A DNA stretch of 64,000 nucleotides from Candidatus Dojkabacteria bacterium (lineage in GTDB: Bacteria > Patescibacteriota > Dojkabacteria > SC72 > JAFGCJ01). Below the pieces are notes generated by a model. It ran no database searches, had not been told where the DNA came from, and saw only the letters and a list, made by a program, of their open reading frames with translations. This document shows, piece after piece, positions 12,819 to 60,873 of this stretch; position 1 is the first letter of the stretch; the number at the start of each line of letters is the position of its first letter. The stretch is from positions 10,909-74,908 of the forward strand of contig JAFGCJ010000001.1 of NCBI GenBank assembly GCA_016932785.1. The letters run 5' to 3'. Position numbers and translations under genes: made by a program.

Positions 12819-12835
12819 AACTATAAGTTAGCGGG
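12819..12835 (+). promoter_or_regulatory. Conserved 17-mer AACTATAAGTTAGCGGG, copy 1, with a -10-like TATAAG 10 nt upstream of the tRNA-Leu 5' end
   Basis: Exact 17-mer also present at 12953-12969 and 49342-49358. The spacing to the downstream gene start is identical for copies 1 and 2. Confidence 0.5.
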
Positions 12836-12837
12836 TG

Positions 12838-12952: not shown

Positions 12953-12969
12953 AACTATAAGTTAGCGGG
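12953..12969 (+). promoter_or_regulatory. Conserved 17-mer AACTATAAGTTAGCGGG, copy 2, immediately upstream of efp
   Basis: TATAAG lies at 12956-12961 and the efp ATG at 12972, with only 10 nt between them and no SD sequence. This implies a leaderless or near-leaderless transcript. Confidence 0.5.
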
Positions 12970-12971
12970 AT

Positions 12972-19049: not shown

Positions 19050-19180
19050 GGTCTGACCCCCGTTGGGTCTGTCCCCTTAAAAAAACTTGTTTTTGCATTC
19101 TTTTAATAGAAATTTCATTAAAAAACAGGCCGAAGACTGTATAAACAGGGGTCAGACCTGTTGGGGGTCAGACCCCCAAC
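19049..19180. repeat. Gene-less REP-like doublet: two inverted ~28-33-bp G/C-rich elements around a ~70-bp AT-rich spacer
   Basis: Left arm gggtctgacccccgttgggtctgtcccc (19049-19076). Right arm ggggtcagacctgttgggggtcagacccccaac (19147-19180). Both are near-identical to the elements flanking the RAYT gene at 60309-60330 and 60835-60873. Confidence 0.75.
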
Positions 19181-19239
19181 TATAGGATTCTCCGCTTCCA
19201 TTGGACATTTACAACACCTCAATATATACTGTTACCACT

Positions 19240-41600: not shown

Positions 41601-42443
41601 CTGCTTCCGAAGAATAGCCGCTCGACCTTCTGGACTGTTGGTGCGAACAAATATCTCCTGATATATTTCAGGCAATGTAGCCACATATCTTTGCAATATA
41701 ACCCCTAGAGCTTCATTTAGTTGTGCCAGTAATTCTAGGTTAGGGCGTGTTCCAAGTATTCTTGTTTGCTCGAGGAATAAAGCCTCGAGTGCTTGTCTAA
41801 AGCCATCTGGAGTTCCAGTTTCTCTTATGGCCCGAATCAATGGTTCTATTTGGTCTTGAAATTCTTCAGGTATCTCTGGTGGTGGTGTGTAGGTTTCTGG
41901 TTCTAGAGTGCCCTGTACTTCGAAATCTGGTGGGGCTTCCCTAGATTGAGATTCTTCGGGAGGGGTTGGAGGAAGAGAGTCTTCATCCGGTGCTGCTCCT
42001 TGGATACCACCAACCGCGGGAGCTGGAAGCTCAGGCTGTCCTGTAGGTTCTACCGGTGTGCCAGCTTTTGTTGCAGCAACCTCCTGTGGTGCGGGCTGTG
42101 GAGCGGGAGGTTCTGCATCATTAGGAGGACTTGTTGGAGTTGGGTCGTACAAAGGACCTACTCCAGGTTTGGGACTACTATCTTCAGTATTGCCAGCGCC
42201 TTTCTCTCCGGGTCCTATTTCTGTATCAACTTTTGAATCTCCTTCTCCACCTTGTCCCCATTTTTCACCGACCTTTTCGAGTGTTGGTGCCTCGTTTCGA
42301 TAATATGCCTGTGCAGCATTTGCAATCTGTTCTTCTTGGCTACCTACGGGGTCAGGTGCATCTCCAGTACCTTGTCCGGTTCCTTCTGAAGTATCTAAAT
42401 CACCTTCTCCTGGTCCTCCTCTTGTTTCTGCTGACATTTTCAA
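35649..42443 (-). CDS. 2264-aa acidic, Pro/Glu/Ala/Arg-rich giant protein with two internal repeat families and a central Gly/Ala-rich hydrophobic hairpin
   Basis: Single uninterrupted ORF, very G+C-rich in places (hand count 41/60 at 37201-37260). There is no N-terminal signal peptide. The hydrophobic segment is NIAGAWGVKTIVTGAIAALAAGTVLATGGGALLVATLAGVAGGLLGGVI. The numerous antisense ORFs are judged spurious. Confidence 0.75.
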   Translation of the reverse strand: MKMSAETRGGPGEGDLDTSEGTGQGTGDAPDPVGSQEEQIANAAQAYYRNEAPTLEKVGEKWGQGGEGDSKVDTEIGPGEKGAGNTEDSSPKPGVGPLYDPTPTSPPNDAEPPAPQPAPQEVAATKAGTPVEPTGQPELPAPAVGGIQGAAPDEDSLPPTPPEESQSREAPPDFEVQGTLEPETYTPPPEIPEEFQDQIEPLIRAIRETGTPDGFRQALEALFLEQTRILGTRPNLELLAQLNEALGVILQRYVATLPEIYQEIFVRTNSPEGRAAILRKQQEKGPQTEVQAKEPEQPAEPEPRPIPDQYTETFEPLVEELERAETAEEFQRALESIYIEEIRAGVEPANIVTGATNQDRPQDLLARAISKRVYACFQEYPQFLEIPSYITRYRMEDLIEQAGGLPVPEAEDEDEAEAIDPDNFPENIRTIISEREDLQELLRIANLLIELGPETEERSAFETTAHEYFRQLRALRSAVPAQGQSPRDILTATTSIDQALTDTQTGEQREIMTRAYSEVYNESKPGPETGTTPKEGIDISDLSPEDREFLARREDLDNLIRIANGLIFTNQENLESFREQAFAYFRQMRELRPAETEEDIQAFGRVNSLINNAVEDSLTDEQRQIMEQVRDIVKEEPVQEVKTGTPPSDREHTVQVEDLSPEAQELIAKSEALKEVVLQTNVVITTSLDGDLDAFRVAARHFIEAGHRAEEETADEEAEIINEIARALNDAIEAVISEDEREILMQEAASVPEVAQGLVDSAKETVKANLEASNQLVDEQLKLMQLQDKLQDDPENTELQEAIRDQEEVIALVEGIIAVTDQNLDMLETAGVDIGEVTDEYWAEVIAQREAEGSHQAAGTGAGTQPGTATQPRAEDTTTAAQQPPRIDLGGIPAELIPAYEELGRVIERLEQAQAELVRREAELAEIDALVEGAPVPEPGEPAENPEAEAEEAAALARENAQRLREQIQVEEKEPVKGWKKFARGVVEFVTNIAGAWGVKTIVTGAIAALAAGTVLATGGGALLVATLAGVAGGLLGGVINSKVHHLFHPGEHVTWAENCVVSKFLGGILSFKNRLRNRLIDIFQIPQRMGDLATVYHAVRDIDLAQNPNLTLQNIEGLTDQQLLTAYRQLIVLRRTTEFRALNAIELENGFTNAEGNAVQNMEAINHLIQVIPEIISANNIDTAEITQAANAEITEAVAQARRAEMLNKMFKGAVVGGIFGAVSKVVQNLISTGDFLGRIRGETFAGVPKFEDALQDIEAVQQDYHQIQVDILKDNGVDQRVINRIFETIDDGDGVLRGEELAKVQALLGDDVIKTVTERTGEVVKVPSTGFSSYDELHLDNWDNPDLMKELDWGYGGKIHGLNVGTGEPGQFGGGMAIEDTFEKLHDAGVTLESLNQADGDGARAFNAILTGQMSVEDAIANPAFDLEVAGEVTKTAGTMTVEAFNNTMFGLAQEGYNCSTELDALAQAMAEAQREAALIAAQRSFLLASSQGSGNFYAALMRTGNNIVKGAFAATAAVAGQAVYAPDDTKDGDGRTQGRVGTRARAVARAARGDFDQQVRGQAEEREGEARPGIGQRAREAAREAGTRVRNAGRALAGRAVVEETAEPGAPVVPVIPLGAVGNATMARVATHAGQRATRFTEGEGDDEQTGFGFRTRRQAARFAQRLVEAGIVELDNPETLVQDSGNPAEGLDRAARREHNDRRYRVMFRRGEATVEPEEPAEPAPPAEPAAPRPQAGGTRTRRPGATAEMTQDLRDRIANLQTQIDEGREQAGRATAQLREQAARAARARTTGAGTVPVGETMRRVGRQPLTTAPVRPTTGTREPAGTEPATRPPARPAAPVPTATTTPQPTTTAAARETAQREAPTAQRPEHPLEAQIRASLREFNEKQTRWPDRGYTIGRDRRTSEGEIVGFRSAEAAQAFETYLREKGVIEEGAQTRVEDMGEPDKREVPDPATREKTRQRRYRLVVEEVATAEEPGTETAERELPNPNLPRIVVTENKEWRERFTKGDIRETIESYNGNIARGNYNGENLAGGGFQTREDAVRFAQHLVDTGAAEGEPSDWVNDLGPNVGDERVRYQVLYMKVISGERPTRPVVSEVTKREIPEYREEKQPKAEAEEKQEIPEDLFPEGEALLKAIENAETEEEAEAAYTAFYREYIPLSKRLDYNDADTLNAITELRLEFVHEKHPEFRKIGIRVYREVDTEFRTTFNGSPLDADENRSEAQAAPEEPPAEPSEPEAPPEEASPFDVAPEATQAV
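36170..37500 (-). repeat. Three dispersed ~70-90-aa repeats in the C-terminal half of the giant protein
   Basis: Unit 1: GFGFRTRRQAARFAQRLVEAGIV...RRYRVMFRR. Unit 2: IVGFRSAEAAQAFETYLREKGVI...RRYRLVVEE. Unit 3: GGGFQTREDAVRFAQHLVDTGAA...VRYQVLYMK. Confidence 0.7.
39320..39475 (-). other. Predicted transmembrane helical hairpin of the giant protein (around aa 990-1040)
   Basis: About 50 consecutive G/A/V/L/I/T residues with a GGG turn in the middle. Confidence 0.55.
40200..41165 (-). repeat. Three tandem ~105-aa protein repeats in the N-terminal half of the giant protein
   Basis: Unit 1: REDLQELLRIANLLIELG...AHEYFRQLRALR...TDTQTGEQREIMTRA. Unit 2: REDLDNLIRIANGLIFTN...AFAYFRQMRELR...SLTDEQRQIMEQV. 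Unit 3: SEALKEVVLQTNVVITTS...AARHFIEAGHRA...VISEDEREILMQE. Confidence 0.7.
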
Positions 42444-42456
42444 ATTTTGTTAAATT

Positions 42457-42945
42457 TTAGGTTGTTACGTATTCACCTACAAGATTCCATTTTTCTTCGT
42501 CTATGTTTTGTAGGGTTTTGGTGCAATTTGAAATCCTGCTCTGATAGTCTTTCATCTGGTCGACGTTCCTGGCCTCCTTCATCAGTCTCATGTATTTCAG
42601 CCTTTTTGCTTCGTACTGTTCTTTTACCACGCGAGCCTTTACCTCGCGGTTTGCGTCAACAAATAAATCTTCGGCATTTGGCAGGGCCTCCCCTATTTCC
42701 TCAAGGAGTGCTTCAACGTTTTTGGTATTCGTAGGCGGATATTTTTCCATTAAATCTTCGAGCTGTTTTGGTTTGAGGCTTCTACCGACTTTCTCCTGCA
42801 GATAATATTCAAGTACCAACTTTTCGAGAAGTTCCATGTACTCGTCTTTTTCTTTCTGGTCGACTGCCGACATTCCGAGAAGTTTAAACAGGTCATACGC
42901 GAGAATTGATGAATCATCACTTTTGGAGAACTTGTAAAGCTGCAT
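42457..42945 (-). CDS. 162-aa hypothetical helical protein, first gene of the giant-protein operon
   Basis: Its stop lies 13 nt upstream of the giant ORF start on the same strand. Charged, helix-prone sequence with no recognisable domain. Confidence 0.55.
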   Translation of the reverse strand: MQLYKFSKSDDSSILAYDLFKLLGMSAVDQKEKDEYMELLEKLVLEYYLQEKVGRSLKPKQLEDLMEKYPPTNTKNVEALLEEIGEALPNAEDLFVDANREVKARVVKEQYEAKRLKYMRLMKEARNVDQMKDYQSRISNCTKTLQNIDEEKWNLVGEYVTT

Positions 42946-43083
42946 TTTTATATCAGTCGATAAATTATCACAGCACCCGCAATTATATCGCTATAGGCCT
43001 TTGTTTGCAATGCTGTTACATTATAAAGTAAACCTTTTTGTTACATTTATGTCAAGAAGTTATCCACATTATTAAAAAAACTT

Positions 43084-43112
43084 GGTGTCAGGCATAGCCT
43101 ATGCCTGACACC
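43084..43112. promoter_or_regulatory. 29-bp perfect palindrome (14-bp arms, 1-nt centre) in a divergent intergenic region
   Basis: ggtgtcaggcatag-c-ctatgcctgacacc, read directly. It lies between the divergent starts at 42945 (-) and 43153 (+). Confidence 0.45.
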
Positions 43113-43152
43113 GGAGGTGATTTTTCGCGTCAAATAGTGTTATTATAAAATA

Positions 43153-43842
43153 ATGAAGAATATTCTTAATGAAAAACCGACTGATCCCCTGCATGCGAGA
43201 TACCTACATGCTTCCAGGTTTATTAAGAAATCTGACGTCAAAAATAAGAATATTCTGGACATCGGATGCGGGTTTGGCTGGTTTGAGGCTGAAGCCGATA
43301 GACGTGGAGCTTCAAAGATTTCGTCAATAGAGGTGACGGAGAAAGATCTTGAAACGGCGAGGAAATATCTTACTGATCACAAATTTCGGTTGCAAGCTGG
43401 TAGTGCGCTCGATCTTCCCTATTCGAATGAAGAATTTGATACTGTTGTTGCGTGGGAGGTTTTGGAGCACTTGCCGAGGGGAACTGAACAAAAAATGTTT
43501 ACTGAGGTTAACCGCGTACTTAAAGGAAAAAGTGTTTTTTACCTCTCGACTCCGAGATTGAGTCTTTTTAGCAATATTCTCGACCCGGCCTGGTGGCTGA
43601 TTGGCCATAGGCACTATTCTGTCGATTTCATTAAATCAATGGCAGAAATGACAGGCTTTAAGGTTGATGAACTCAGAATTATCGGTGGCTGGGGTACTAT
43701 TCTCTGGTCACTGGATATGTATTTTTCCAAGTGGGTGCTTAGAAGAAGGCCTATTTTCAGCAAGAAAGTTTACGAGTGGACAGATAGCGAATTTGAAAAA
43801 GATGGTTTTATGACAATTTATGCTAGACTAATTAAGAAGTAA
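43153..43842 (+). CDS. Class I SAM-dependent methyltransferase
   Basis: ILDIGCGFGWF (motif I) and FDTVVAWEVLEHL (motif II/III region). Confidence 0.8.
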   Translation: MKNILNEKPTDPLHARYLHASRFIKKSDVKNKNILDIGCGFGWFEAEADRRGASKISSIEVTEKDLETARKYLTDHKFRLQAGSALDLPYSNEEFDTVVAWEVLEHLPRGTEQKMFTEVNRVLKGKSVFYLSTPRLSLFSNILDPAWWLIGHRHYSVDFIKSMAEMTGFKVDELRIIGGWGTILWSLDMYFSKWVLRRRPIFSKKVYEWTDSEFEKDGFMTIYARLIKK

Positions 43843-43863
43843 TTAAGTAATCATTAAATCACG

Positions 43864-46800
43864 GTGAGTAAAAAGCCCGCTTTCATAACATTTCTAAAGA
43901 ATAACTGGCAAAAGATTTTTCTTTTGCTAATTCTGCTTGCCGCCATTGGATTGAATATAAATTGGGGTAAATTTTGTATTTCCAATGACAATTATTCTCC
44001 TGAACTGGAGCCTTCAGTTACCATTGGCAGGAGCCTGATTTCGCCGGCATGGAGGGGTTATAGGGCTCTTGGCGTTCCGTCGGACAGCGAGCAGTCCGAT
44101 TTATTCAGGTCAGGCATGTACTATGCCTGGCATATACTCCTTCCAAAGTGGGCCTTGGGTCAGCTATATGCGTTTTTCTGTCTTGCCCTCGGGGCACTCT
44201 TTTTCGGCAAATTGGCTGAAAAAATAACTAAAGACTATGGAGACGAGAAAATCGCCAAGCATGTTTATCTACTGGCTGGGGTGGTTTATCTGACTACGCT
44301 GTGGACGGCGTGGGTTTATAGCTATGACATAATGGTTTATATTACCCAATTTGGGTTTCTTCCATTTCTGCTTCTTGCGTGTTACAACTTCATTAAAAAA
44401 TCGGATGTCGTTAATGCGCTTGTTCTTATGCTGGCAGGTTTTCTTATTAGCGCTTCGAGCCTTATTGCGACTGTTTTCATCGTTCAGTTAGGAGTTGTCT
44501 GTATATTCGCGCTTTTCTGGTCGTTTGTGTCAACTCGCAAGATTTATCTTTTTGTCACTAAGGCTTTTCTTACTATCATTGTATTCGTTTCTACACAGCT
44601 TTTCTGGCTTGTTCCGTTTTTCCATTATGTGAGTTCAACCCAGTCCGATGTTGTCGAGTCGTATACAAATCGCTCTATAACAGCATCAACAATTGAGCTT
44701 GAGAAGGCCTCTATGGACGGGTGGGACTCGGCGCGACTTTATACCAGACTTCTTGAGGTTCCTGATTCGAACTATGGGGATGAGAAGATGTTTGCTCCCT
44801 CAGATGATTATAGGGAAATAGAGTTTCTTAATGTAATTAGTTATTTGCCCTTATTTTTTTCAGTTGTGGGGTTAATATTTGTCTTATTTAAGAAGAAATT
44901 TGGCCTGTTGTTCTTTTGGGTATTGGCAATTGCGGCTTGGTTCTTGATTAAGAATCTGAATCCGCCATTTGGTGAGTTTTATGCATGGCTTCAGGATAAT
45001 TTTGCAATATTCAGGCAGATTTTCCGGTGGCCTACATCGAAGTTTGGAGGTATTTATCTAATCGGTTTTGCCTTCACAGCAAGTATCGGAGCTGCATATT
45101 TATTTGAATTTATGTCATCGTTTTTCAAGAAAGGAGCAAATTTAATCTTCAGCGTACTTGTGGCGATAACAATTGGGCTTCAACTGGTTTTCGGGGCATT
45201 TGTGTTTGACGGAAATCTGGTACCAGATAGGGCTTGGGCAGATATTCCTGAATCCTACTATGAACTTCGTGATTATCTTGTTGCAAATAATCCGGACAAA
45301 AGACTCTACATAATGCCTCCGTCTAACACTGGTTACTTCAGGGAATATGACTGGAACTTTATTGGGTCAGGGTTTTTGCATTATATAGTTCCAAATCCAA
45401 TAGCTGATTTGGCCATGGCTCTTGGTTCTGATGAAAGTGAAAAAGCCATGGATGAGCTGACTCTGGATTATTTTGCCGATCCTGTGGACTTTCGCACGAG
45501 GCTTGAGAACTATGATGTCGGTTACGTATTAGTAGATCGAAGTTTGATAAAAGGCCGATATGGCTATGAAATCGATTGGGATCTTGTAGAACCGGCTTTG
45601 GGCTCAATGACGAAGGTCTGGGCTTCTGGTGATTTAGAGCTCTACGAAGTGCCTCAGAGCTCCAAAGAAAGGATGTACACGGAGCTGCATCCCGGTCACG
45701 ATATGTATCTTAGCGACAAGGACTATTATGTTAAAGCAGAGCCTGAATATGGGGCGATCTATCCTGCCTTGGTTGATCTTAGCGGATTGGAGCCGGAGGG
45801 CGGTTTGCTAAGGGGATCCTTTATGTATGAAGGCAAAGATGCAGTGATGTCGGATAATCTTGATAGAATGGATATTTCTCAGCTTCCGACCAGGGTTTAT
45901 GTTGATGAGTCGAGAGTTGTGGTTGAGCCTTCTCTTCCCAGTATTGGTGGTGTGAGTTCTATAGTGCCCTATATGGAGTATCCTTTAAGCAACAAGTACG
46001 AAAATCTTGTCGTTGGAGATCAGGTAATTGCCATTTCTAGTATTATCGGAGATGAAATTTCTGTTGATACTTCGTATGGAGATATTAGTGCTGTTTACGG
46101 TCTGAAGGATGCCGATTTTACAGGGAAAGATTATCGGAGAAATCTTAAGGATGCAGATCCTGTCGACTGTTCTGGTGAAGATCTGAAAGATATTGCTGAG
46201 GTTGAGTTCGAGGATTATGAACTGACACTCACTGCCCATGACGGAATCGGGTGTGTGGCAGCACAGCTTCCTAAAAAAACTGGCACATCTGTTGCGAAAG
46301 TTCAGATAGGTTGGAGTGCAGATGAGGGTACTCTTGTAGGATTTTGTTTGTGGTCGGAGAAGCGTGAGACATGCCTAAATAACGACAAGTTTCTCTACTC
46401 CAATGAAGGAGAGAACTATGTTGAAATGATTCTTCCGTCTGTTGTTGATCCTAACGAGGCGATGTCTGTAATTCTTTATGTTTTTGCAAAAGACAGTAAT
46501 ACGCATAGTGCGGTATTTGACCGGGTTGAGGTACTACAAAATGAAAAACTTGATGCATTACTGTTGTTGGATAAAAGTAATGCTTTTGGATCGGTGAGTC
46601 TCTATGTTGAGAATGGGCAAAATATTGATGTTGAGATACCGGTTGTCCGTGGGAGGTCGTCATACAGACTAGGATCAGTGGATGGTTTTATCTGGGAACC
46701 CGTCTATGAGTCTGGTGATGAGGAATTGAATTTAACTGGATGCGAATACTGGTCTGATCCGCTTGGTATGCACCAGAAAACGTATGAGTGCAGTTTAACC

Positions 46801-47544
46801 CAATGGTCATCTATCTACCGTAATCCTATAAATCAAAACATGATGTGGTATTGGTATGGTGAAAACGATGTAGCGGTCCCTGCTTATTTAAATCTCTCGT
46901 ATGATAATGATGAGAGAAAATGGGTTGAAGAAGTGTTTGCTGACGGTGAGCTGGTGGGCGACAGATTGTTTTTCAAGACGAATCGCAAAGCCAAAAATCT
47001 TAGTTCAACAATGGAAACCACGGGTTTTGATACTCTGACTGAGAATATTCTCAAGGATATGGTGGTGCAGTCTGTACCGGATGGATGGGTTGATTATGTA
47101 TTTTCTGTAGACGGCACTAGCGAATATGGCGAGTGTGAGGCTGAGTCAATATCTGATTCCCCCTACTCTGCTGTGTACGCAGCTAAGGATGTCGATCCAG
47201 CCAAAGTTTTAAGTATTCCTCAGGCAACATCTGAGGGCTGGACGGCTTATGCTGTTGAGAATGCTGACGTAATGAGGTGGCTTCCGGAGCAGATAAGAAG
47301 CTTTGTTTTTGTTGTTATTGGCAGCAAACTTCCGGACTCTTCGGATGTTACTCTTAGGGGTTGGAAACAGGGCTGGATTGTCCCCTCCTCTGAGATAGAG
47401 AATGGGAATAAGGATGTTGTTGTGATTTATAAACCGAATCTTTATGCCTACGCAGGAGGTCTGACTTCTCTAGTGGTTCTGGTTGGACTGTGTGTTGCTA
47501 TTTATATTTATAAAAAGAAAACTGTTGGAAAATCAGCAAAGTAA
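43864..47544 (+). CDS. 1226-aa polytopic membrane protein, GT-C-like glycosyltransferase candidate (AftD/DUF3367-like architecture), with a large extracytoplasmic C-terminal region and a C-terminal TM anchor
   Basis: More than 10 N-terminal TM segments, then an ~800-aa soluble region, then a final TM segment (LTSLVVLVGLCVAIYIY). It sits next to a methyltransferase and a GT2. The family assignment rests on architecture only. GTG start. Confidence 0.45.
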   Translation: MSKKPAFITFLKNNWQKIFLLLILLAAIGLNINWGKFCISNDNYSPELEPSVTIGRSLISPAWRGYRALGVPSDSEQSDLFRSGMYYAWHILLPKWALGQLYAFFCLALGALFFGKLAEKITKDYGDEKIAKHVYLLAGVVYLTTLWTAWVYSYDIMVYITQFGFLPFLLLACYNFIKKSDVVNALVLMLAGFLISASSLIATVFIVQLGVVCIFALFWSFVSTRKIYLFVTKAFLTIIVFVSTQLFWLVPFFHYVSSTQSDVVESYTNRSITASTIELEKASMDGWDSARLYTRLLEVPDSNYGDEKMFAPSDDYREIEFLNVISYLPLFFSVVGLIFVLFKKKFGLLFFWVLAIAAWFLIKNLNPPFGEFYAWLQDNFAIFRQIFRWPTSKFGGIYLIGFAFTASIGAAYLFEFMSSFFKKGANLIFSVLVAITIGLQLVFGAFVFDGNLVPDRAWADIPESYYELRDYLVANNPDKRLYIMPPSNTGYFREYDWNFIGSGFLHYIVPNPIADLAMALGSDESEKAMDELTLDYFADPVDFRTRLENYDVGYVLVDRSLIKGRYGYEIDWDLVEPALGSMTKVWASGDLELYEVPQSSKERMYTELHPGHDMYLSDKDYYVKAEPEYGAIYPALVDLSGLEPEGGLLRGSFMYEGKDAVMSDNLDRMDISQLPTRVYVDESRVVVEPSLPSIGGVSSIVPYMEYPLSNKYENLVVGDQVIAISSIIGDEISVDTSYGDISAVYGLKDADFTGKDYRRNLKDADPVDCSGEDLKDIAEVEFEDYELTLTAHDGIGCVAAQLPKKTGTSVAKVQIGWSADEGTLVGFCLWSEKRETCLNNDKFLYSNEGENYVEMILPSVVDPNEAMSVILYVFAKDSNTHSAVFDRVEVLQNEKLDALLLLDKSNAFGSVSLYVENGQNIDVEIPVVRGRSSYRLGSVDGFIWEPVYESGDEELNLTGCEYWSDPLGMHQKTYECSLTQWSSIYRNPINQNMMWYWYGENDVAVPAYLNLSYDNDERKWVEEVFADGELVGDRLFFKTNRKAKNLSSTMETTGFDTLTENILKDMVVQSVPDGWVDYVFSVDGTSEYGECEAESISDSPYSAVYAAKDVDPAKVLSIPQATSEGWTAYAVENADVMRWLPEQIRSFVFVVIGSKLPDSSDVTLRGWKQGWIVPSSEIENGNKDVVVIYKPNLYAYAGGLTSLVVLVGLCVAIYIYKKKTVGKSAK

Positions 47545-48382
47545 ACAAGACCATAGTAGCCCTTTGGTGTCTGTTATTATGCCTGTGCATAATGGAGAGA
47601 AATACCTTAAGGAAGCGATCGAGAGTGTGCTATGTCAGACATACGCCAAGCTTGAGCTTATTGTAGTCGATGACGGCAGTGACGATGATACTCCTGCGGT
47701 TCTGGCTGAATTTGCAGAACGAGATGACCGAATTAAGGTAAAAATTGTTGAGAGACAAGGCCAGCTTGGAAAAGTTCTGAACATTGGAATTCGGATGAGC
47801 TCTGGTAAATATATTGCCCGTATGGATCATGACGATGTTATGTTACCAGGGAGACTTGAGAGACAGGTGAAATTTATGGAGGAGAATCCTGATGTAGTTG
47901 CGGTTGGAGGACAGGTCGAGCTGATTGATTCCGACGGTGTTGCTACCGGAATCCGAAATTATGCTCTTGACGATGGAATGTTGAAGAAGAATATGTTTCT
48001 GTACAGCCCTTTCGCCCACCCTGCTGTTATACTTCGGAAAGATGTTCTGGAATCGGTTGGCCTATACCCTGAAGATGTAAAACGTGTTGAAGATATTAAA
48101 TTATGGTTCATTATTGGGAAGAAAGGGAAATTTGCGAACGTTCCTGAGGTTGTACTGAGATACAGGGTTGTTGAGGGGTCATGGTCGTTGGAGAATATTG
48201 TTGATCAGTTCAGACGCGTAGATGAGGTTCGGAAATGGGCTGTTAGTGAATTGAGTTATGAAGTTGGATTTTGGGTGAGGTTTTGGTGGTGGCTTCAGAG
48301 GGCTGGGATTAGGGTAATTGGTTTGTTACCGGCTAAGGTAGGTATGACTTTGTTTGAGGTATTTAGGAGATTTGTGAGGTAG
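47525..48382 (+). CDS. Family 2 glycosyltransferase
   Basis: VSVIMPVHNGEKYLKEAIESVLCQTY..LELIVVDDGSDDDT, ARMDHDD. The start is uncertain (the TTG at 47525 is proposed). The tracked ORF overlaps the upstream gene. Confidence 0.8.
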   Translation: MENQQSKQDHSSPLVSVIMPVHNGEKYLKEAIESVLCQTYAKLELIVVDDGSDDDTPAVLAEFAERDDRIKVKIVERQGQLGKVLNIGIRMSSGKYIARMDHDDVMLPGRLERQVKFMEENPDVVAVGGQVELIDSDGVATGIRNYALDDGMLKKNMFLYSPFAHPAVILRKDVLESVGLYPEDVKRVEDIKLWFIIGKKGKFANVPEVVLRYRVVEGSWSLENIVDQFRRVDEVRKWAVSELSYEVGFWVRFWWWLQRAGIRVIGLLPAKVGMTLFEVFRRFVR

Positions 48383-48433
48383 AATTTCGTCCTTAAGGAC
48401 TCGTCAGTAGAGCAAATTAAGCTCTAGATTCTC

Positions 48434-49312
48434 TAGGCATAGGACTGTGTTAGGTTGTATTTTCCGGGTCCACCGGCGGTGGGCCTAGAGAATCTTGAAA
48501 CTGGTGGTTGGAGGGTGTTACTCGGTCGGGCAGATGCCGTCTTTGTACTCGTTGGGCACCCAGATGGTGCAGTCTGATTCTGTGACGGCACCGAACCCGA
48601 TTACTGCGAATCCCGAGGATGCTTGGGTATGGCGGGCGACCCTAGTGTACGTTTTGCCGTATGGTAGGCGCTCGCCGTTGTATCCCCCGTCATTCCAGAA
48701 CACATCGTATCCGTTGAGGGGAGTTATGAGGCAAACGATCTCTTCGTCGGGGTCCTGCAGCAGTTCCTTGATAACCAGAGGATGCTCCCAGCGGGAACCT
48801 ATAAAGATGTACATGGGTTCAGAAACTGATCCCATGTTCCAGGGTTCCCCGTTGTGGAAGATCTGGAGTGAGAACTGTGCATCTCCGTCCCCCGTCTCGC
48901 GTTCGTCCTCTTGCCCGGCGCAACTTTCGCACTGAGGGATACCATCCCCCAGGGTACAGTTGCACGCAGGGCTCCCACTGTCTCCGCCCTGGCACCGGCC
49001 GCCGCAGCGGTCGGGATTTCCTGTTCCGTCACAGCATACGGCCGGGACGTAGCCCAGCACGGCTGCAATCTCGTCAAAGTTCGTGACGACGAGAAGAATC
49101 AGGAGAAGTGCGGCAAGAATTGCCAATACCCATGTATACCATTTCATTTTGCTTCCTCCTTGCCCATTTAGGGCATGTTTTTGTTTTATCCGTTTTTCGC
49201 CTCCGAACCACCACACAAACATCAATTACTTGATATCTCTGTGGTGGCCGGAGAAACCGGATTAAAGGAGGAAAACCACTTGTTTCTCTAACACTTTTTA
49301 GTCCTATGCCTA
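48434..49312. mobile_element. ~880-bp G+C-rich cassette bounded by imperfect inverted repeats
   Basis: Left repeat taggcataggactgtgttag (48434-48453). The reverse complement of 49288-49312 reads taggcataggact-aaaaa-gtgttag, giving 13+7 matching bases with a 5-A insertion. Hand counts give 44/60 G+C at 48961-49020 and 16/60 at 49381-49440. Confidence 0.4.
48518..49147 (-). CDS. Cys-rich secreted or membrane-anchored protein of unknown function (210 aa)
   Basis: ATG at 49147 preceded by AAGGAGGA with a 7-nt spacing. N-terminal hydrophobic segment WVLAILAALLLILLVVTNF. Cys-rich stretch CCDGTGNPDRCGGRCQGGDSGSPACNCTLGDGIPQCESCAG. Several overlapping ORFs exist in other frames because of the high G+C. 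Confidence 0.6.
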   Translation of the reverse strand: MKWYTWVLAILAALLLILLVVTNFDEIAAVLGYVPAVCCDGTGNPDRCGGRCQGGDSGSPACNCTLGDGIPQCESCAGQEDERETGDGDAQFSLQIFHNGEPWNMGSVSEPMYIFIGSRWEHPLVIKELLQDPDEEIVCLITPLNGYDVFWNDGGYNGERLPYGKTYTRVARHTQASSGFAVIGFGAVTESDCTIWVPNEYKDGICPTE

Positions 49313-49341
49313 TTTACTGCAACTAAAACGGTAACACCGAT

Positions 49342-49358
49342 AACTATAAGTTAGCGGG
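49342..49358 (+). promoter_or_regulatory. Conserved 17-mer AACTATAAGTTAGCGGG, copy 3 (orphan, with no downstream + strand ORF)
   Basis: Exact match to the copies at 12819 and 12953. A variant, ACTATAGGATAGCGGG, lies at about 49471-49486. Confidence 0.45.
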
Positions 49359-49505
49359 ATCAACCAAAGTTACAGTCTTTTAAAGATCCGAGTTCTAAGA
49401 ATTAATCTAAAGAACTCACAAAAATTCGATAATGAACTTTTGTGAACTCTCTACTTATATTATACTATAGGATAGCGGGTAAATCAAGAACCTAAAAGAG
49501 CGATT

Positions 49506-50282
49506 CTACTTAATTGACGGCAAAAGTTTAACCTTCGAAATAGCCTTGTAAAGGTATTTCACTCTCCTACCCCATGCCTTGGAATATATAATTAGGATAT
49601 CTCGTAGAATGAGCATCATCTGCTTTATATTAGTAATAGTGCTGCCACTTTTAATTTGTGCGAAGAATGGAACGACGGCCACCCTATAGCCTAGTACTTT
49701 CAAAGAATAAAGAATTTCTATATCTGTTGCGAATCTATCGATCTTAAGCATAGGAAGCATTTCTTCAACAACTTCTTTTCGAAAAAGTTTCAAGCCGCAC
49801 AACACATCGTTGACTCCAGCTGGAAGGTCGAGTACTGTCTTGGTAATCAAGACAAGCCCGAGTGTGAAGATTTTTCTGTAGAGAGGAACGTTTACTTTTG
49901 ATTTAGGATGCAGCTTGGATGGGATGACGGCCTTGGTGTCGTTGTCCCCCATTTTCTCCAATGCGACGTCCAGTGATTTCAATTTGATGTCGGTGTCAGC
50001 ATCTGTGAATCCTATGATTTCTCCTTTAGCTCTCTTCATGCCATATCTGATTGCGTATCCCTTACCTCTGTTAGTCTTGTAGTCGTAAATTCGTATTTTA
50101 TTCAGTCCCTGACTGTCAACGAGATCTTTAACGACTTCAAGAGTATTATCCACATGGCCATCGACAACTACTAGCAATTCGAAATCAGGCTCTCTCTTTT
50201 CTAGAAAATTATAGATTCGAGTGAGCTGAGTACCAATGACCTTTTCTTTTTTGTATGCTGGAATGATTAACGAAAGTTTCAT
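49506..50282 (-). CDS. Family 2 glycosyltransferase (dolichyl/polyprenyl-phosphate glycosyltransferase-like)
   Basis: KLSLIIPAYKKEKVIG, LLVVVDGHVDNT, GFTDADTD. Confidence 0.8.
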   Translation of the reverse strand: MKLSLIIPAYKKEKVIGTQLTRIYNFLEKREPDFELLVVVDGHVDNTLEVVKDLVDSQGLNKIRIYDYKTNRGKGYAIRYGMKRAKGEIIGFTDADTDIKLKSLDVALEKMGDNDTKAVIPSKLHPKSKVNVPLYRKIFTLGLVLITKTVLDLPAGVNDVLCGLKLFRKEVVEEMLPMLKIDRFATDIEILYSLKVLGYRVAVVPFFAQIKSGSTITNIKQMMLILRDILIIYSKAWGRRVKYLYKAISKVKLLPSIK

Positions 50283-50303
50283 CTAGAGCAGTACAAAACT
50301 GAT

Positions 50304-50558
50304 TTATTGGGCGAGTTTTGATCTGATAGCCTTGACTGTTGCAAGGATTGCAGTACCGACTGCAAATGCGATACCGGAGAAGACGTAAAAGGAACTGGTT
50401 ATAAGACCAGTTTCCTCAGGTTCGTGTCCATTGTATGGGTTATCCGATCCTCCTGCAGCTAAAGCTTCGAAGGCATACTTGACTCCGAGAATAGCCATAC
50501 AGGTTATGACTGATACTGCAAAGCCTATTGTTTTGTAGAGTAGTCTTTTTATCTTCAT
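50304..50558 (-). CDS. 84-aa protein with an N-terminal signal/anchor and a C-terminal sorting-signal-like tripartite tail
   Basis: The sequence is MKIKRLLYKTIGFAVSVITCMAILGV...AFEALAAGGSDNPYNGHEPEETG, then the hydrophobic stretch LITSSFYVFSGIAFAVGTAILATV, then KAIRSK. The gene lies directly downstream of a sortase gene. Confidence 0.5.
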   Translation of the reverse strand: MKIKRLLYKTIGFAVSVITCMAILGVKYAFEALAAGGSDNPYNGHEPEETGLITSSFYVFSGIAFAVGTAILATVKAIRSKLAQ

Positions 50559-50673
50559 AAAAATATAGACAGTAAGATAAATGTTGATAAGTGATTATAA
50601 CAAAAATTGAGCCTGAAAGTCAAACACTATAGGACCTTATGGTTGGCATAAAAAGAGTGAGTTTATAGGGTTA

Positions 50674-51351
50674 TCAGTTTACCCGTTTTGCATATCTGAA
50701 AACTCGTACGGGAGAGTTAAAAAGTTTGCATGTATAGAGGATTAAATCGGCATTATAATCCTTAATCTGCGTGTTTTCTTCAGCCTTGTAGATCTCGTAT
50801 TTGTACTTTCTCTGTTTCCAGATTATCTCTACTTTGTCACCTACCTTGGTTTTAGGAAGGTAATAAAACGAGTCTTTCTTCCTAAAATCCCAGCTCCAGG
50901 TAATATATCCGAACCTATGTGCAGCCAGAATTATTGGGACTTTGTCCTCTGGAGTACCGTAATCGTTTACACGCCAGATACCTTTTTCGAGAGTCTTCTC
51001 AGCGTTTGTTCCTTCATGGATTTCTCCGTTTACGCCGATATTTGGAATTATCAGTGTGTTTTTCTTTGTTAGTGACTTATCCAGTTCTGGTAGTTTGACC
51101 TTGTCCTCGTTTGCGTAGTTCTCCTCGTATTTTTTTATAATATCTTCAAAAGAGATCTCCGGGTCTGCTCTAGGCTGTACTGGACCCACAAGAGAATCGA
51201 TCTCCTGGTCAGTTGCGCCTTTGTTAACAAGGTACCACAAGTAAGGTAGCGAAGGTGTAAGCAGAAATACAAGAGACAGAGCAATCAGAGCGAATCCGAT
51301 TAGAGTATAAATGTTTAGAATTTTGTTCAGCAGCTTTGATTTTTTAGTCAT
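50674..51351 (-). CDS. Sortase-family transpeptidase with an N-terminal membrane anchor
   Basis: TM segment IYTLIGFALIALSLVFLL. Catalytic pattern ILAAHRFGY ... LILYTCK ... VRVFRY. Confidence 0.8.
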   Translation of the reverse strand: MTKKSKLLNKILNIYTLIGFALIALSLVFLLTPSLPYLWYLVNKGATDQEIDSLVGPVQPRADPEISFEDIIKKYEENYANEDKVKLPELDKSLTKKNTLIIPNIGVNGEIHEGTNAEKTLEKGIWRVNDYGTPEDKVPIILAAHRFGYITWSWDFRKKDSFYYLPKTKVGDKVEIIWKQRKYKYEIYKAEENTQIKDYNADLILYTCKLFNSPVRVFRYAKRVN

Positions 51352-51385
51352 TGAGGTTGATTAAGTATTTCCAATAAATGATAAC

Positions 51386-52357
51386 CTAATTCTTTGTTCT
51401 AAGCCACAGCTCTAGAATCATTCCGCTGGCGTGCCACTCTGAAGCGTTATCTTTCCCGATGTACCGGTAGTGCCAGGGCTCGTAGCTGAATCCTGTCTCT
51501 TGTTCCCATCCTGATGGGAAAGATAAAACAAATCCGTATTTCCAAGAATGTTGTGCAAGCCACTGCCCGGCTGAAGTGTTTCCAAACTGTTGTCCGAGCT
51601 GATCACTTATTTCGTTTGATGTGAAATCTACAGCTGTTCCCAGTTGATGCTGGCTGTGTCCCGGACGGGCTGAGATAGTGTCCGCTGCTGCGGTATCTCC
51701 TCCGTTGTATGCTACCCAGTAATCGTATGTTGCCTGCTGTGTTGAATAGCTTCGATAAGCTGAAAGTGCTGCTACATCTATTCCTGCTGACTTCATGGTA
51801 TCGGCCATGTTTTTTAGGTCTGAGATCATGATATTTCTGACATATAAGCCGGATTTAGTTGTTCTTATTCCAGAATTACTTATTGGGACAAGGTCTGAAG
51901 GAGCATAACTGGATGGAAGCTTGTATTGTTTATTTACAAGTACCAAAAGGTCATTCCCACTTCTTGTACAAGAAAGTATTGTTGAGGGGTATCCGCCGGT
52001 TGAAGTAGTGTTGCCAGTCGAGCTTCCGGAAGATGATTCGTCTGTCTGTCTTTTGTCGTCAATTTCTTTGAGGATGTTTTCCAGAGTCTCTGATTTGAAG
52101 ACCTTTTCGGCAATGTCAGAAGGTGAAGTTGTATCTGAGTTGTTGTCAGTATCTGGAAATATTGCTGATGTGTCGATCTTGCTATAATTGTAACCAAGCT
52201 TGTTGTAATCACTTAAAACGATTAATACTCCTGTTGCGATAATCAGGAGATATATGATTGCAGATGCAAGAAAAACGACCAATATAGATCTAATCTTTAC
52301 CTTTGTCGTCTTTCTTGGTAGTTGATTTGTCTTTTGCTTCTTTGTCATCTTCGCCAT
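51386..52357 (-). CDS. M15B (VanY-like) D-alanyl-D-alanine carboxypeptidase
   Basis: [34 protein letters not shown], and an N-terminal TM anchor. The start overlaps the gyrA 3' end by 68 nt. Confidence 0.8.
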
Positions 52358-55163
52358 AAACTAGGGCCATTGCTCCAACAGAATCTCCGGTATTGAGTTT
52401 CATTACTCGCACTCCTGATGTCTGTCTGCCAAGCTTGGCTATCTGCCCGATTTCAGAGCGTATGACCTGGCCGTGTTTTGATATGAGAACCAGTTCTCTA
52501 TCTGGCGTATCGAGGATTCTTGCGACAACAAGTTCTCCTGTCTTTTCGTTGACTCTGAAGGTGAAAACACCTTGTCCTGATCTGCCCTGAAGCGGGTAGT
52601 TCTTAAGCTCAGTTCTTTTGCCGTAACCTTTTTCAGAGATTGTAAGAAGCATGTGTTCATCGGCTCTTACAATATCCATGGCAATAACTTCGTCATTCTC
52701 ACTTCTAAACTTTATTCCCCTAACACCCATGGTATTTCTTCCGGTCGGGCGTACGTCCTCTTCCTTAAACTTTATGCTTCTTCCATTCTTTGTTACGAGG
52801 ATAATGATGTCGTCACCCTTCGAAGGTTTGACCCATTTCAGCTCATCTCCGCTCTCGAGTTTAATTGCTATGAGACCGCTTGTTCTTATTTTGTCAAATT
52901 CAGATATATCAGTCTTCTTTACGGTGCCGTTTTTTGTCGCCATGAAGAGGTACTGATACTTGTTAGCAGGCAATAGTTCGTTCTGCTCGGCCTGTCCCTC
53001 CTGGGTCTGATCTTCGTCGACAATACCCTCTTTGCTACGTGTCAGGATAGCTGTAATTCTTTCATCCTGCTCAAGCTGTATAAGATTTACTGCAGGAATT
53101 CCTTTTGCGGTACGACTAAATTCGGGTATTTCAAATACTCTTGTCTGGAATGCTCTACCCTTATTCGTGAAGAATACTATGTGATCATGGGTATTGCACA
53201 TAATGGCGTGCTCAATGAAATCACCTTCTTTTGTAGTTGCACCAATAATGCCTTTACCTCCGCGTTTTTGTACTTTATAGTTTGAAGGTGCCATCCTTTT
53301 GATATAGCCACCGTGACTTAGTGTAACAAGTGTTTCTTCGGCCGCAACAAGGTCCTCTTCCTCTATTTCGTCGACTTTTCCTTTATATATCTTGGTTCTT
53401 CTTTCATCGGCGTACTTTTCTTTAAGTTCTTTGAGTTCATTCTGTACGACCTTGATGATCTTGGATGGTGCTCCGAGTAGGGCTTCGTAGTCGTCTATGG
53501 ACTTGAGTACATTTTTATATTCCTCTTCTATCTTCTGTCGTTCAAGAGCAGCGAGCCTGCGAAGCTGCATGTCAAGAATGGCTTGGGCCTGCACTTCTGT
53601 CAGTTCAAATTTTTTGATCAAATTGTCTTTTGCCTCTTCCTGAGTTTTGGAATTTCTAATGGTTTTTATGACCTCGTCAAGGTTGTCCAGTGCGATCTTT
53701 AGACCCTCCAAAATATGTGCCCTGTATTTGGCATTTGCCAGTTCAAACTCATTTCTTCTGATTATTACTTCGATTCGATGAGTGATAAAGTGTTCGAGTA
53801 TTTGTTTGAGATTAAGTGTTTGCGGTTGCCCGTCCACAAGCGCGATCATGTTCGCGTTGTAGGACTTTTGCATTTCTGTATATTTGTAGAGCTTGTTAAG
53901 AACGGTTTTGGGTTGTGAAGCCTTCTTAAGGTCGATAACAACCCTGATCCCTTCCCTGTTTGACTCGTCGCGTATATCTGAAATACCTTCAATTCTCTTG
54001 TTTTTTACAAGATCTGCGATCTTGGTAATCATGTGGGCCTTGTTTACCTGGTATGGTATTTCTGTGATTATTATTTGGAATTTTCCGCTTTTTGTTTCGG
54101 AAATTGAGGCCTTTGCTCTACATAAAATTCTTCCCCTACCATTGGCGTAGGCATTCATAATCTCACTTTGATCGTAAACAAGTCCTCCGGTTGGAAAGTC
54201 CGGTCCTGGAATTATTTCTATTAATTCCTCTACTGTTATATCTGTTTCGAATTGCGGATACAGGGTGACCGGTCCCTCTTTTTCTGGAATGTCCTCCTCC
54301 TGATTCTGCTGATTGAGGCTTAGTTTTTCCCTTAATTCGTCGAGTTTTTTCTCTAGTTTTTCGTTCTCCGGGTTTGAATATGAATCTAGATAGTGCTCTG
54401 GGGTTTCGGTAAGTGTTTTCGGAATCTTCTCTGTTTTCTCTCTGTCCTGACGCAGGGTATTGTAGATAGCAGTTCCTTCCCACTGGTTGCCCTTATTTAT
54501 CATTTCATCAATTGCGTCTATGATCTCTCCAAGATTATGAGGAGGTATCTTGGTCGCCATTCCTACAGCGATACCGTCTGCTCCGTTGCAGATGAGATTT
54601 GGGATTGCTGACGGAAGTACAGTAGGCTCAAGTCTTGTTCCATCATAATTTGGCGCATATATTACGGTTCCTTTATTAATATCATTAAGCATTTCATGAG
54701 TAATCTTTGTCATTCTTGCCTCTGTGTAACGCATAGCCGCAGGCGGATCACCGTCGATTGAACCAAAGTTTCCCTGGCCATCTACAAGCGTGTATCTCAT
54801 ATTGAAATCTTGAGCCATTTTCACCATTGTTGGGTAGACTATAGATTCACCATGCGGATGGTAGTTACCGGTAGTGTCTCCAGCTACCTTGGCTGATTTT
54901 CTGTATCCCGCCGAAGGCGTGAGACCTAGGTCATTCATTACGACCAGAATCCTTCTTTGTGAAGGCTTAAGGCCATCTCTGACATCTGGGAGTGCACGTG
55001 CAACAATAACGCTCATAGAATAATCTATGTAGCTATCTTTCATCTCTTCAACGATTGACCGTTCTACAATTTTACCCCCTTGAATTGCTGCCTCGTTAGT
55101 CTCTCTACCTGCTGTTCGAGCCTTTTGTGTCGGCTTTTCTGTTTTCTTTTCTTTCTTAGCCAT
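52290..55163 (-). CDS. gyrA: DNA gyrase subunit A
   Basis: [54 protein letters not shown]-terminal beta-pinwheel repeats and an acidic/basic tail. Confidence 0.95.
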
Positions 55164-60285: not shown

Positions 60286-60792
60286 CTAGTATATTTTACC
60301 ATGAGTTTGGGGTCTGACCCCCGTTAGGTCGTTATCCTCGATCAAGTGTAGATACGAATCCTTAACAAACAGCCATTTGTAGTAAAATGGGTTTGAAACA
60401 TATTGGGCTTTGACGGGATTGTCTATCACGTAATGAATTATATTGTGTAGACCACTTATCCCTTTAATAAGGCGTGTGTTATATCTTCCCTGAAACGTAT
60501 GTCCGACTAATCTGTATCTTGTGTTGTAATACTGACTGTAGGAAGTTTTTACTCGTTGCATGAATTTTGATATTTGGGGGCCGATTCCCTGTTTTAATAC
60601 TAGATGGTAATGGTTGTCCATTAAGCAATAAGAAACCACTTCTACTGATGTCATTCTTTCAATTTCTCTGAGCTTTTGAATAAAGAATTTGTTGTCGGTT
60701 GGAAAGTTAAATATCCGGTTTTTTCTGTTACCACGGTCATATACATGATAATAAGCATTCTGAATAAAGGGTGGTCGTACATTTCTTGGCAT
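60286..60792 (-). mobile_element. REP-associated tyrosine transposase (RAYT; IS200/IS605 Y1_Tnp family)
   Basis: YHVYDRGNRKNRIF, LMDNHYHLVLK (HUH motif), GHTFQGRYNTRLI (catalytic Tyr region), YVIDNPVKA. Confidence 0.8.
60309..60330. repeat. REP-like element, left arm of a 22-bp perfect inverted repeat flanking the RAYT gene
   Basis: The reverse complement of ggggtctgacccccgttaggtc is gacctaacgggggtcagacccc, which is found at 60842-60863. This arm lies within the last codons of the RAYT ORF. Confidence 0.8.
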
Positions 60793-60834
60793 AAACAGAT
60801 ATTAACTTGAAAAAATGAAGATGGTATTAAAATT

Positions 60835-60873
60835 GGGGACAGACCTAACGGGGGTCAGACCCCCAACTACAGG
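60835..60873. repeat. REP-like element, right arm, upstream of the RAYT gene
   Basis: ggggacagacctaacgggggtcagacccccaactacagg, which parallels 19147-19186 (ggggtcagacctgttgggggtcagacccccaactatagg). Confidence 0.8.

Follow-up and report, generated by a model that had tools for sequence, protein, structure and literature searches.

Hundreds of bacterial hammerhead ribozymes are known (PMC3088659), and their purpose is largely open. Where they flank genes in bacteria and phages, they have been proposed to process longer transcripts into gene-length mRNAs (Perreault et al. 2011, PMC3088659). Pairing between the two ends of an mRNA has been described elsewhere. In the hbs mRNA of Bacillus subtilis, a 14-bp helix between the 5' and 3' untranslated regions (UTRs) and a strong Shine-Dalgarno (SD) site control decay, the helix modulating RNase Y cleavage and stability (Braun et al. 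2017, PMC5737220). In the icaR mRNA of Staphylococcus aureus, the 3' UTR masks the SD, promotes decay by RNase III and represses (PMC3868564). The subject of the present analysis is a gene of Candidatus Dojkabacteria that is bracketed by an inverted repeat and followed by a hammerhead. It lies on the minus strand of a 64,000-nt stretch of contig JAFGCJ010000001.1 (assembly GCA_016932785.1, positions 10,909 to 74,908), which was analyzed as a whole and is called the window below.

The locus is best read as an expression unit conserved across Candidatus Dojkabacteria, in which a gene for a variable secreted protein is carried by an mRNA that would be closed by the two arms of the repeat and given its 3' end by the hammerhead; the probability of this reading is put at about 0.6. 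The layout of the unit, the conservation of its slot, the covariation of arms and ribozyme stems, the intact catalytic core and the replacement of the segment between the arms are well supported by the sequence and by comparison of the related loci. The initial annotation had described the same segment as a recently acquired foreign cassette, possibly from a G+C-rich source.

A conserved slot with exchangeable content

The neighborhood of the gene is widespread in the lineage. Homologues of its 1226-aa AftD-like neighbor are numerous in Dojkabacteria, the closest of them 39% identical. In two related loci (L002 and L004), the genes are ordered as AftD-like GT-C glycosyltransferase, GT2 glycosyltransferase, slot, GT2, 84-aa membrane protein, sortase, VanY and GyrA, and the slots hold opposite-strand open reading frames (ORFs) of ~200 aa that have no Pfam match. 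When species-representative genomes were scanned with the downstream GT2, 33 further Dojkabacteria loci were obtained, and the arrangement of GT2, slot, convergent GT2 and AftD-like gene, with both flanking GT2 genes, is present in ~26 loci overall. In nearly every locus, the slot ORF is ~150-320 aa long, shares its strand with the downstream GT2, is preceded by a strong SD and is richer in G+C than its genome, and its product carries a membrane helix or a lipobox. No empty site is found among the related Dojkabacteria loci.

The proteins encoded in the slot are far more variable than its borders. At least two families with no relation to each other (12 and 8 loci) can be distinguished, besides the pair formed by the window protein and the protein of cassette b in L002, and singletons. 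In L006 and L009, the downstream and convergent GT2 proteins are 94% and 97% identical and the slot proteins 62%; in L023 and L037, the corresponding values are 84%, 86% and 30%; and in L008 and L010, with GT2 identities of 96% and 91%, the slot proteins belong to different families. Nucleotide identity is 90-100% in the leader and 5' arm and in the 3' arm and ribozyme, compared with 30-60% between the arms, and the frame is kept even around the 17-codon ORF of a second unit in L037. Of the cassette idea in the initial annotation, this much is upheld: the segment between the repeats behaves as a replaceable unit, its ORF being 30-62% identical or unrelated where the flanking enzymes are 84-96% identical. 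We infer that it is exchanged by homologous recombination within the conserved frame. No recombinase gene lies beside the slot, the nearest being a tyrosine recombinase gene 20 kb away. Absence of the repeats elsewhere, together with vertical conservation of the gene, had been named as grounds for giving up the foreign origin, and here the outcome is split: the repeats are present elsewhere, and the slot is vertically conserved while its ORF content is not.

A hammerhead ribozyme beside the 3' arm

The hammerhead of the window (Table 1) has its stems I and II closed by loops and its stem III open. Its 42.5 bits are below the Rfam gathering score of 48.5 bits, and the default scan missed it, whereas an E-value threshold recovered it; at gathering level, Rfam reported a hammerhead in none of 11 loci. 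The hammerhead of L011, which has a large loop 2, reaches 26.3 bits (E = 0.0054). These low scores are due to loops and short stems, not to the core, which in the window reads CUGACGA...GAAA with AUC as the cleavage triplet. In the relatives, the 3' arm is followed by stem III, C, the stem I hairpin, CUGAUGA, the stem II hairpin, GAAA and stem III again. The relatives' triplet is UUC or CUC; like the AUC of the window, these are NUH triplets, with an A15.1-U16.1 pair and an H17 that is not G. The core CUGANGA...GAAA, U16.1 and C17 show no variation across 19 aligned loci, and changes on both sides are seen at 5/6 pairs of stem I, 2/4 of stem II and 4/5 of stem III, with 98-100% of cells paired. 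The predicted cut follows the C at 48427 (between 48427 and 48426), 8 nt beyond the 3' arm. The final bases of the ribozyme overlap the stop codon of the convergent GT2 gene (47483-48382, plus strand).

A structural pattern scan returned one motif per Dojkabacteria locus, two in the tandem of L037 and none in 47 unrelated loci. The hammerhead beside the 3' arm is the sole one that it found within the window, and there was none anywhere else in the ~0.9 Mb scanned. In L002, which has two cassettes, the ribozyme occurs only at the one nearest the convergent GT2. An intrinsic terminator is located 3' of the ribozyme in L021 and L037. No report of a hammerhead from Dojkabacteria, Patescibacteria or the Candidate Phyla Radiation turned up in literature searches.

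Arms resembling a long-range RNA helix

The inverted repeats that the initial annotation had placed at the borders of the segment are indeed there. They consist of TAGGCATAGGACT and its complement, perfect over 13 nt, and are extended by 7 nt of GTGTTAG (48447-48453) with CTAACAC (49288-49294), with a 5-nt bulge on the right side. The search for further copies that it had recommended gives only these two arms in the 64-kb window, together with homologous arms in the loci of related genomes. A perfect inverted repeat of at least 12 nt surrounds 22/25 cassette ORFs, compared with 10/162 control ORFs from the same or related loci, with one arm 100-200 nt 5' of the start and the other 50-135 nt 3' of the stop.

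The arms can be aligned across genomes but differ in sequence. The 5' arm corresponding to TAGGCATAGGACT in the window is AAGCACAGGATGGA in L002, AGCACAAGATGAA in L004, TAGCGTGTGATGA in L011, ATAGTGTGTGATG in L008, AGTGTGTGACGAA in L006 and TAGCGTGTGGTGA in L034. Covariation was counted in a gapless alignment of 19 loci that covers the long-range helix and the three hammerhead stems. Over these elements, 95.1% of cells are paired and 23/29 pairs vary on both sides; none of 500 shuffles matches the observed values, and sliding the partner by 1-3 columns brings pairing down to 26-44%. In the long-range helix itself, 12/14 pairs covary. G-U pairs occur at a position that switches between U-A and C-G (in L013 and in unit 2 of L037) and at the helix end (in L006). 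Because the arms covary and a ribozyme abuts one of them, they resemble the two strands of an RNA helix closing the mRNA, not transposon ends. Their earlier designation as terminal repeats of a foreign cassette is therefore not retained, as a hammerhead adjoins one arm in every locus.

Translation signal, composition and codon usage

The SD of the cassette gene, AAGGAGGAA (49153-49161), is the only 5-mer SD match among the 40 ORFs of the window, in agreement with the view that such a site is unusual here. The site is as textbook-like as had been noted, although it stands 5-6 nt before the ATG and not 7. A -10 box is found 4-10 nt before the start of 7/40 window ORFs (starts uncurated), compared with 2.9% of random positions, and TATAAT lies a few bases ahead of many ATGs in related loci; some neighboring genes thus look leaderless. 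With its long 5' UTR, the cassette gene would be expected to need an SD site, unlike its SD-less neighbors.

The ORF has a G+C content of 0.568, compared with 0.427 for the whole window. A sliding-window check confirmed it as the most G+C-rich 630-nt stretch of the 64 kb (z = 3.8), and the hand counts in the initial annotation (44/60 at 48961-49020, 16/60 at 49381-49440) are exact. G+C at third codon positions (GC3) is 0.657, compared with 0.381 +/- 0.037 in the 39 other ORFs (z ~7.6); over the three codon positions, G+C is 0.59/0.46/0.66. Recoding the protein with the window's own codon usage gives a G+C of only 0.464 (GC3 0.373), so that ~11 of the 14 excess G+C points are synonymous. The same elevation is seen in the related loci, where the GC3 of the cassette ORF exceeds the locus mean in 24/25 cases and the highest background ORF in 23/25.

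As codon use in the window is strand-asymmetric, the cassette ORFs were compared with same-strand genes only. C at third positions (C3) rises by 0.114 (24/25 loci, Wilcoxon p = 1.2e-7), G (G3) by 0.049 (23/25, p = 8.3e-7), NNC among two-fold codons by 0.156 (21/25, p = 3e-6) and the CGN share of Arg codons by 0.50 (24/25, p = 3e-7). NNG among Lys, Glu and Gln codons shifts by -0.009, with a rise in 8/25 loci (p = 0.26, not significant). In the window ORF, C3 is 0.43 compared with 0.23 in same-strand genes and G3 is 0.23 compared with 0.19, and the preferred codons include GAC for Asp (11:3), TGC for Cys (9:2), TAC for Tyr (7:1) and CGC for Arg (5/7). A G+C-rich donor should raise NNC and NNG alike. 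Since NNG is flat, the pattern does not fit such a donor, nor does it fit biased gene conversion. It instead fits selection on the cassette transcript, perhaps translational and linked to high expression, perhaps against U.

Two observations on the composition of the wider window can be added. Codon use depends on the strand, with G3 > C3 in plus-strand genes (NNC 0.10-0.38) and C3 >= G3 in minus-strand genes (NNC 0.43-0.58), and GC skew is positive from 1 to 28 kb, then close to zero. The second-richest G+C stretches (up to 0.55) belong to a 2264-aa ORF (35649-42443, minus strand); its GC3 is only 0.33 and its GC1 0.65, so that here, in contrast to the cassette ORF, amino-acid composition accounts for the G+C.

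RNA folding and a possible mechanism

In the predicted minimum-free-energy fold, the ~890-nt unit, taken from the arm to the cut site, is closed by the arms and their 7-bp extension (z = -6.3), and five other units are likewise closed by their arms. The fold is not rod-like, with 7-20% of pairs near the rod diagonal. The 5' UTR folds strongly (z = -8.3), and its SD is predicted to pair with UUCCUCCUU ~100 nt upstream; in the relatives, the SD also lies within a small covarying hairpin. When the 3' region of the window is folded alone, the best structure (-40.8 kcal/mol) pairs 48483-48498 with the junction of arm and ribozyme, blocking the ribozyme, and the ribozyme-competent fold is 12.6 kcal/mol worse. 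When the 5' arm segment is included, the arms pair with each other and this gap is 0.2 kcal/mol. Over 23 loci, the ribozyme fold carries a mean penalty of 4.8 kcal/mol when the 3' region is folded alone, compared with 0.2 kcal/mol once the 5' segment is present; the penalty drops in 21/23.

A functional account can be drawn from these folding models and from analogy with characterized mRNAs. The arms would pair across ~850 nt, supported by inner 5'/3' helices, to give a closed mRNA. The hammerhead would then cut 8 nt past the 3' arm, removing downstream read-through or terminator RNA and leaving a 2',3'-cyclic-phosphate end beside the helix. As the active ribozyme fold is predicted to be favored only when the 3' arm is already held by the 5' arm, cutting may be coupled to closure. 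The product would be a stable, well-translated mRNA. Leader, arms and ribozyme may at the same time provide flanking homology, so that the ORF between them could be swapped or diverge quickly, as might be expected for a surface protein under diversifying selection.

Several points weigh against this account. The coupling of cutting to closure may be partly trivial, as a 3' arm lacking its partner will pair with some other sequence close by, and a distinct blocking segment is significant in only 10/24 loci. The ORF folds beyond its synonymous shuffles (z = -2.2 to -4.3), but so does one of two control genes. The percentage of paired cells is partly built in, since the arms had been located as perfect repeats and this match also fixed the 3' register, a caveat that covers this percentage and leaves the differences between genomes and the comparison with control ORFs unaffected. 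In L002, cassette b has arms and no ribozyme, so arms can work without one, and cassette a has both NNC (0.81) and NNG (0.87) raised, with a GC3 of 0.79; it may be that this cassette is a true import.

Alternative explanations

The foreign cassette of the initial annotation would be a recent insertion from a high-G+C organism, with repeats that are mobile-element ends of an insertion sequence (IS), a miniature inverted-repeat transposable element (MITE) or an integron. The strong GC3 outlier, the unique SD site, the repeat that brackets exactly the odd segment, the orphan protein with one distant relative, the exchange of the segment between the arms among relatives and the composition of cassette a in L002 would all be in keeping with such an origin, which is nevertheless unlikely. 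The same slot, SD, raised GC3 and covarying repeat occur in ~26 Dojkabacteria genomes, the arms and ribozyme accompany the slot in every related genome, and no empty site was found. Only two copies of the arms are present in 64 kb, and there is neither a transposase nor an integron integrase, the nearest recombinase gene being distant and itself syntenic. The flanks (gattctc and tttactg) show no target duplication, the TA at the outer ends belonging to the repeat, and the arms change together between genomes, including at G-U pairs. The high-G+C donor itself does not fit a synonymous shift that goes toward NNC and CGN and leaves NNG of Lys, Glu and Gln unraised, nor an excess in the window ORF that lies in C3 with little in G3. 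More specific candidates of this kind were rejected as well. An attC-like reading of GTTAGGT is only a weak consensus match. An integron cassette would not have repeats on both sides of the ORF and its own promoter-like box, and no integron integrase is nearby. For an IS or MITE, the sole ORF is a secreted protein without a Pfam match, and target-site duplication, empty sites among the related loci and extra copies within the 64 kb are all missing. An assembler-specific chimeric join at the cassette is unlikely, because an independent Logan assembly of SRR13394437 is identical to the GenBank assembly over window positions 37864-53544 (15,681 nt).

The repeats could also act in the DNA, as recombinase sites that invert the segment relative to an outside promoter (phase variation) or swap cassettes. 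Perfect 13-nt inverted repeats do flank a gene whose promoter lies outside them, they match the borders of the variable segment, and a tyrosine recombinase gene is conserved in the neighborhood. This explanation is hardly probable, however, given that the ORF has one orientation in all ~26 genomes, that no recombinase gene adjoins the slot, that the arms contain G-U positions, that one arm abuts a ribozyme and alters its predicted fold, and that the nested inner 5'/3' complementarities vary by cassette, as expected for RNA folding and not for recombinase sites. A third explanation is a circular RNA, or descent from a viroid- or Obelisk-like replicon, in which the ends held by the arms are ligated by the hammerhead or RtcB into a translatable circle. 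The unit of ~0.75-0.93 kb (887 nt in the window), its ~200-aa ORF with an SD, its type III hammerhead end and its paired ends would suit this, and its size, ORF, hammerhead and paired ends are shared with Obelisks as these have been described (10.1101/2024.01.20.576352). The tandem in L037, with a hammerhead after each unit, would give unit 2 ribozyme-made ends on both sides, and by our reading the leader is hammerhead-like in layout, with a degenerate core. Against this, the unit is encoded in chromosomal DNA at a fixed slot, its fold is not rod-like, and its protein combines a membrane helix with a domain that a low-confidence model shows as beta-rich. Upstream of single units, no active ribozyme was found (Rfam at E <= 1, or E <= 5 in L011, and the structural scan), so that no 5'-OH end is predicted for them. 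This third explanation is hardly probable either. A further version, in which the arms hold ribozyme ends for ligation into a closed, translatable circular mRNA at least in tandems such as L037, and in which single units derive from such an array or from a captured viroid-like replicon, with the leader as a decayed upstream hammerhead, seems very unlikely.

Features of the unit

The expression unit in the window is laid out in Table 1, in the direction of transcription.

Table 1. Elements of the Dojkabacteria unit, with positions in the 64,000-nt window
Element	Position	Strand	Basis and remarks
Promoter-like box CCTATAGTATAAT, presumed transcript start region	49459..49471	minus	TTGATT-17-TATAAT by consensus scan
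Leader, ~146 nt	49313..49458	minus	20-bp hairpin 49408-49453; block GAACUCGGAUCUUUAAAAGA 49377-49396; hairpin 49316-49376, 3 nt before arm
5' arm of putative closing helix, UAGGCAUAGGACU	49300..49312	minus	perfect complement of 48434-48446; homologous covarying arm in relatives
Structured 5' UTR	49148..49299	minus	GUGUUAG strand 49288-49294; anti-SD UUCCUCCUU 49265-49273; long hairpin 49208-49247; SD 49153-49161
ORF, 209 aa	48518..49147	minus	N-terminal membrane helix, Cys-rich linker (8 Cys), acidic stretch, beta-rich C-terminal domain of ~120 aa
3' UTR	48447..48517	minus	CUAACAC 48447-48453; G+C-rich mini-hairpin; 48483-48498 alternative partner of arm/ribozyme junction
3' arm of putative closing helix, AGUCCUAUGCCUA	48434..48446	minus	complementarity and covariation in relatives
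Type III hammerhead	48379..48434	minus	Rfam RF00008 full model 1-54, 42.5 bits, E = 1.3e-7 (region searched)

The initial description of the product as an anchored or secreted, Cys-rich protein holds, with small corrections: it has 209 aa and not 210, its N-terminal helix is hydrophobic, and instead of about 10 Cys residues in 45 aa there are 8 within residues 38-76 and 11 in total. The NCBI form, MBN2100308.1, is a hypothetical protein of 202 aa that begins at a TTG at codon 8 (49124-49147, minus strand). The ATG at 49147 is favored as the true start, in accordance with the Logan gene call and the position of the SD. The protein has no Pfam match. A word-indexed search and a full HMMER scan of 1.84 billion representatives matched it to itself alone, so that the proposed search for its taxonomic affinity yields the protein itself and, in addition, a distant positional homologue in L002. 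This homologue is encoded by the L002 gene that adjoins the downstream GT2 (26% identity over 124 aa, pairwise E = 5e-7). A profile built from the two sequences recovered no third member, leaving a family of two among 5.8 billion proteins, and viral contigs contain no relative of the window protein. Among ten other slot proteins, nine have no Pfam match and one has a sub-threshold match to DUF1068. AlphaFold2 models of the window protein are of low confidence, with a pLDDT of 47 for the sequence alone and 51 with the two sequences.

The promoter-like 13-mer or a near copy occurs 150-170 nt upstream of the 5' arm in related loci, and an alignment of 15 leaders reveals conserved blocks and two hairpins with some covariation. 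For the leader, too, the predicted fold has z = -8.3. No Rfam family matches the leader at E <= 1 in the window or at E <= 5 in L011. The single-stranded conserved blocks are CUGCUCUUUAA, AUAAGnAUUCAUAGA and GAAGAUCUUUAAAAAUUUCUAA, present in the window leader, in L011 (6798-6972) and in 13 other loci. The layout of the leader in the relatives resembles that of a type III hammerhead, with GUAUGAG as the core in place of CUGAUGAG; it may be that the leader is a decayed upstream ribozyme. Three other candidates were rejected. Interpreting GUGAUGA in the arm as a kink-turn or C-box relies on a motif that is not conserved in the window, pairing of GAAGAUC in the leader with the 5' strand of the ribozyme is not accompanied by covariation, and a promoter immediately before the 5' arm is not conserved.

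Further observations in the window and related loci

Some slots are more elaborate. In L005, L008-L010, L013-L015, L023 and L026, larger slots (such as L009 7508-8491 and L008 7176-7787) contain extra conserved opposite-strand genes. One extra protein of ~325 aa begins MEGKELN.EISSTTLGN, another of ~203 aa begins MTKNCYVFIDASNMFYG, and in several slots a lipoprotein-like gene of ~340 aa is located between the ribozyme and the convergent GT2. L037 has two tandem units at 9548-10130: unit 1 is followed by a hammerhead, and unit 2 consists of arms with a U-G pair, an SD, the 17-codon ORF and a second hammerhead, followed by an intrinsic terminator. In L021, a run of N (7091-7190) takes the place of the unit's ORF, possibly as a scaffold gap or through masking, and leader, arms and ribozyme are intact. 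The tyrosine recombinase gene (PF00589) is syntenic upstream of the AftD-like gene in distantly related Dojkabacteria, namely in the window (27055-28428, plus strand), L002 (26-1327), L003 (537-1820) and L004 (3773-5059), and may encode a Xer-type housekeeping enzyme.

Two further sequence motifs recur in the window. AACTATAAGTTAGCGGG is present three times on the plus strand (12819-12837, 12953-12971 and 49342-49360; 0.1 matches expected), directly before tRNA-Leu (12838), directly before the ATG of elongation factor P (12972), and inside the leader hairpin, directed away from the ORF; near 49467 there is also a degenerate copy. The motif resembles a -10 box combined with a start site, as for tRNA and leaderless transcripts. 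Intergenic repeats built on GGGGGTCAGACCCCC occur at 19045-19186, 60304-60330 and 60830-60873, as direct and inverted copies 41 kb apart, and may be terminator-like hairpins or a small repeat family.

Significance and comparison with known systems

The fixed, lineage-wide context suggests a concrete job for a hammerhead, namely 3'-end formation on a single mRNA, coupled to a helix by which this end is tied to the 5' UTR. It also calls for caution in inferring horizontal transfer: odd G+C content, an odd translation signal and flanking inverted repeats may all stem from selection on one transcript. Finally, through the slot a rapidly changing surface or secreted protein can be recognized in a group of the Candidate Phyla Radiation that is uncultured. 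Some Candidate Phyla Radiation relatives live attached to hosts. If Dojkabacteria cells are also host-attached, the slot protein would be a candidate for contact with hosts or phages.

Among the described systems, the hammerheads of Perreault et al. (PMC3088659) share with the window unit a canonical core next to a protein gene. They are mostly of type I or II, are found in prophages, are often grouped and flank variable genes, whereas the Dojkabacteria unit has a single type III ribozyme in a chromosomal slot that is fixed across the lineage, abutting a covarying 5'/3' helix with predicted control over the ribozyme fold. Obelisks (10.1101/2024.01.20.576352) and retrozymes (PMC7229834) resemble the unit as RNAs of ~1 kb with a type III hammerhead and paired ends, to which Obelisks add an ORF of ~200 aa. 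The unit differs from both in being DNA-encoded (in two DNA assemblies), syntenic and not rod-like, with one ribozyme per unit except in the tandem of L037. Integron cassettes and variable surface-antigen loci likewise combine conserved borders with a replaceable ORF that can belong to unrelated families in close relatives. The unit has no attC or integron integrase, its borders are transcribed RNA elements, and its exchange would probably run through homologous recombination.

As for mRNAs with paired ends, the 3' UTR of icaR pairs with the 5' UTR of the same mRNA, as the arms would here; in the unit, the SD stands ~140 nt downstream of the arms, and a strong SD is conserved along with them, unlike the masked SD of icaR. 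The hbs mRNA likewise combines a long-range helix between the UTRs (13 bp plus 7 bp in the window) with a strong SD. It lacks a ribozyme, and its 3' end does not arise by self-cleavage. By analogy with hbs, the helix in the Dojkabacteria unit may also affect the stability of the mRNA.

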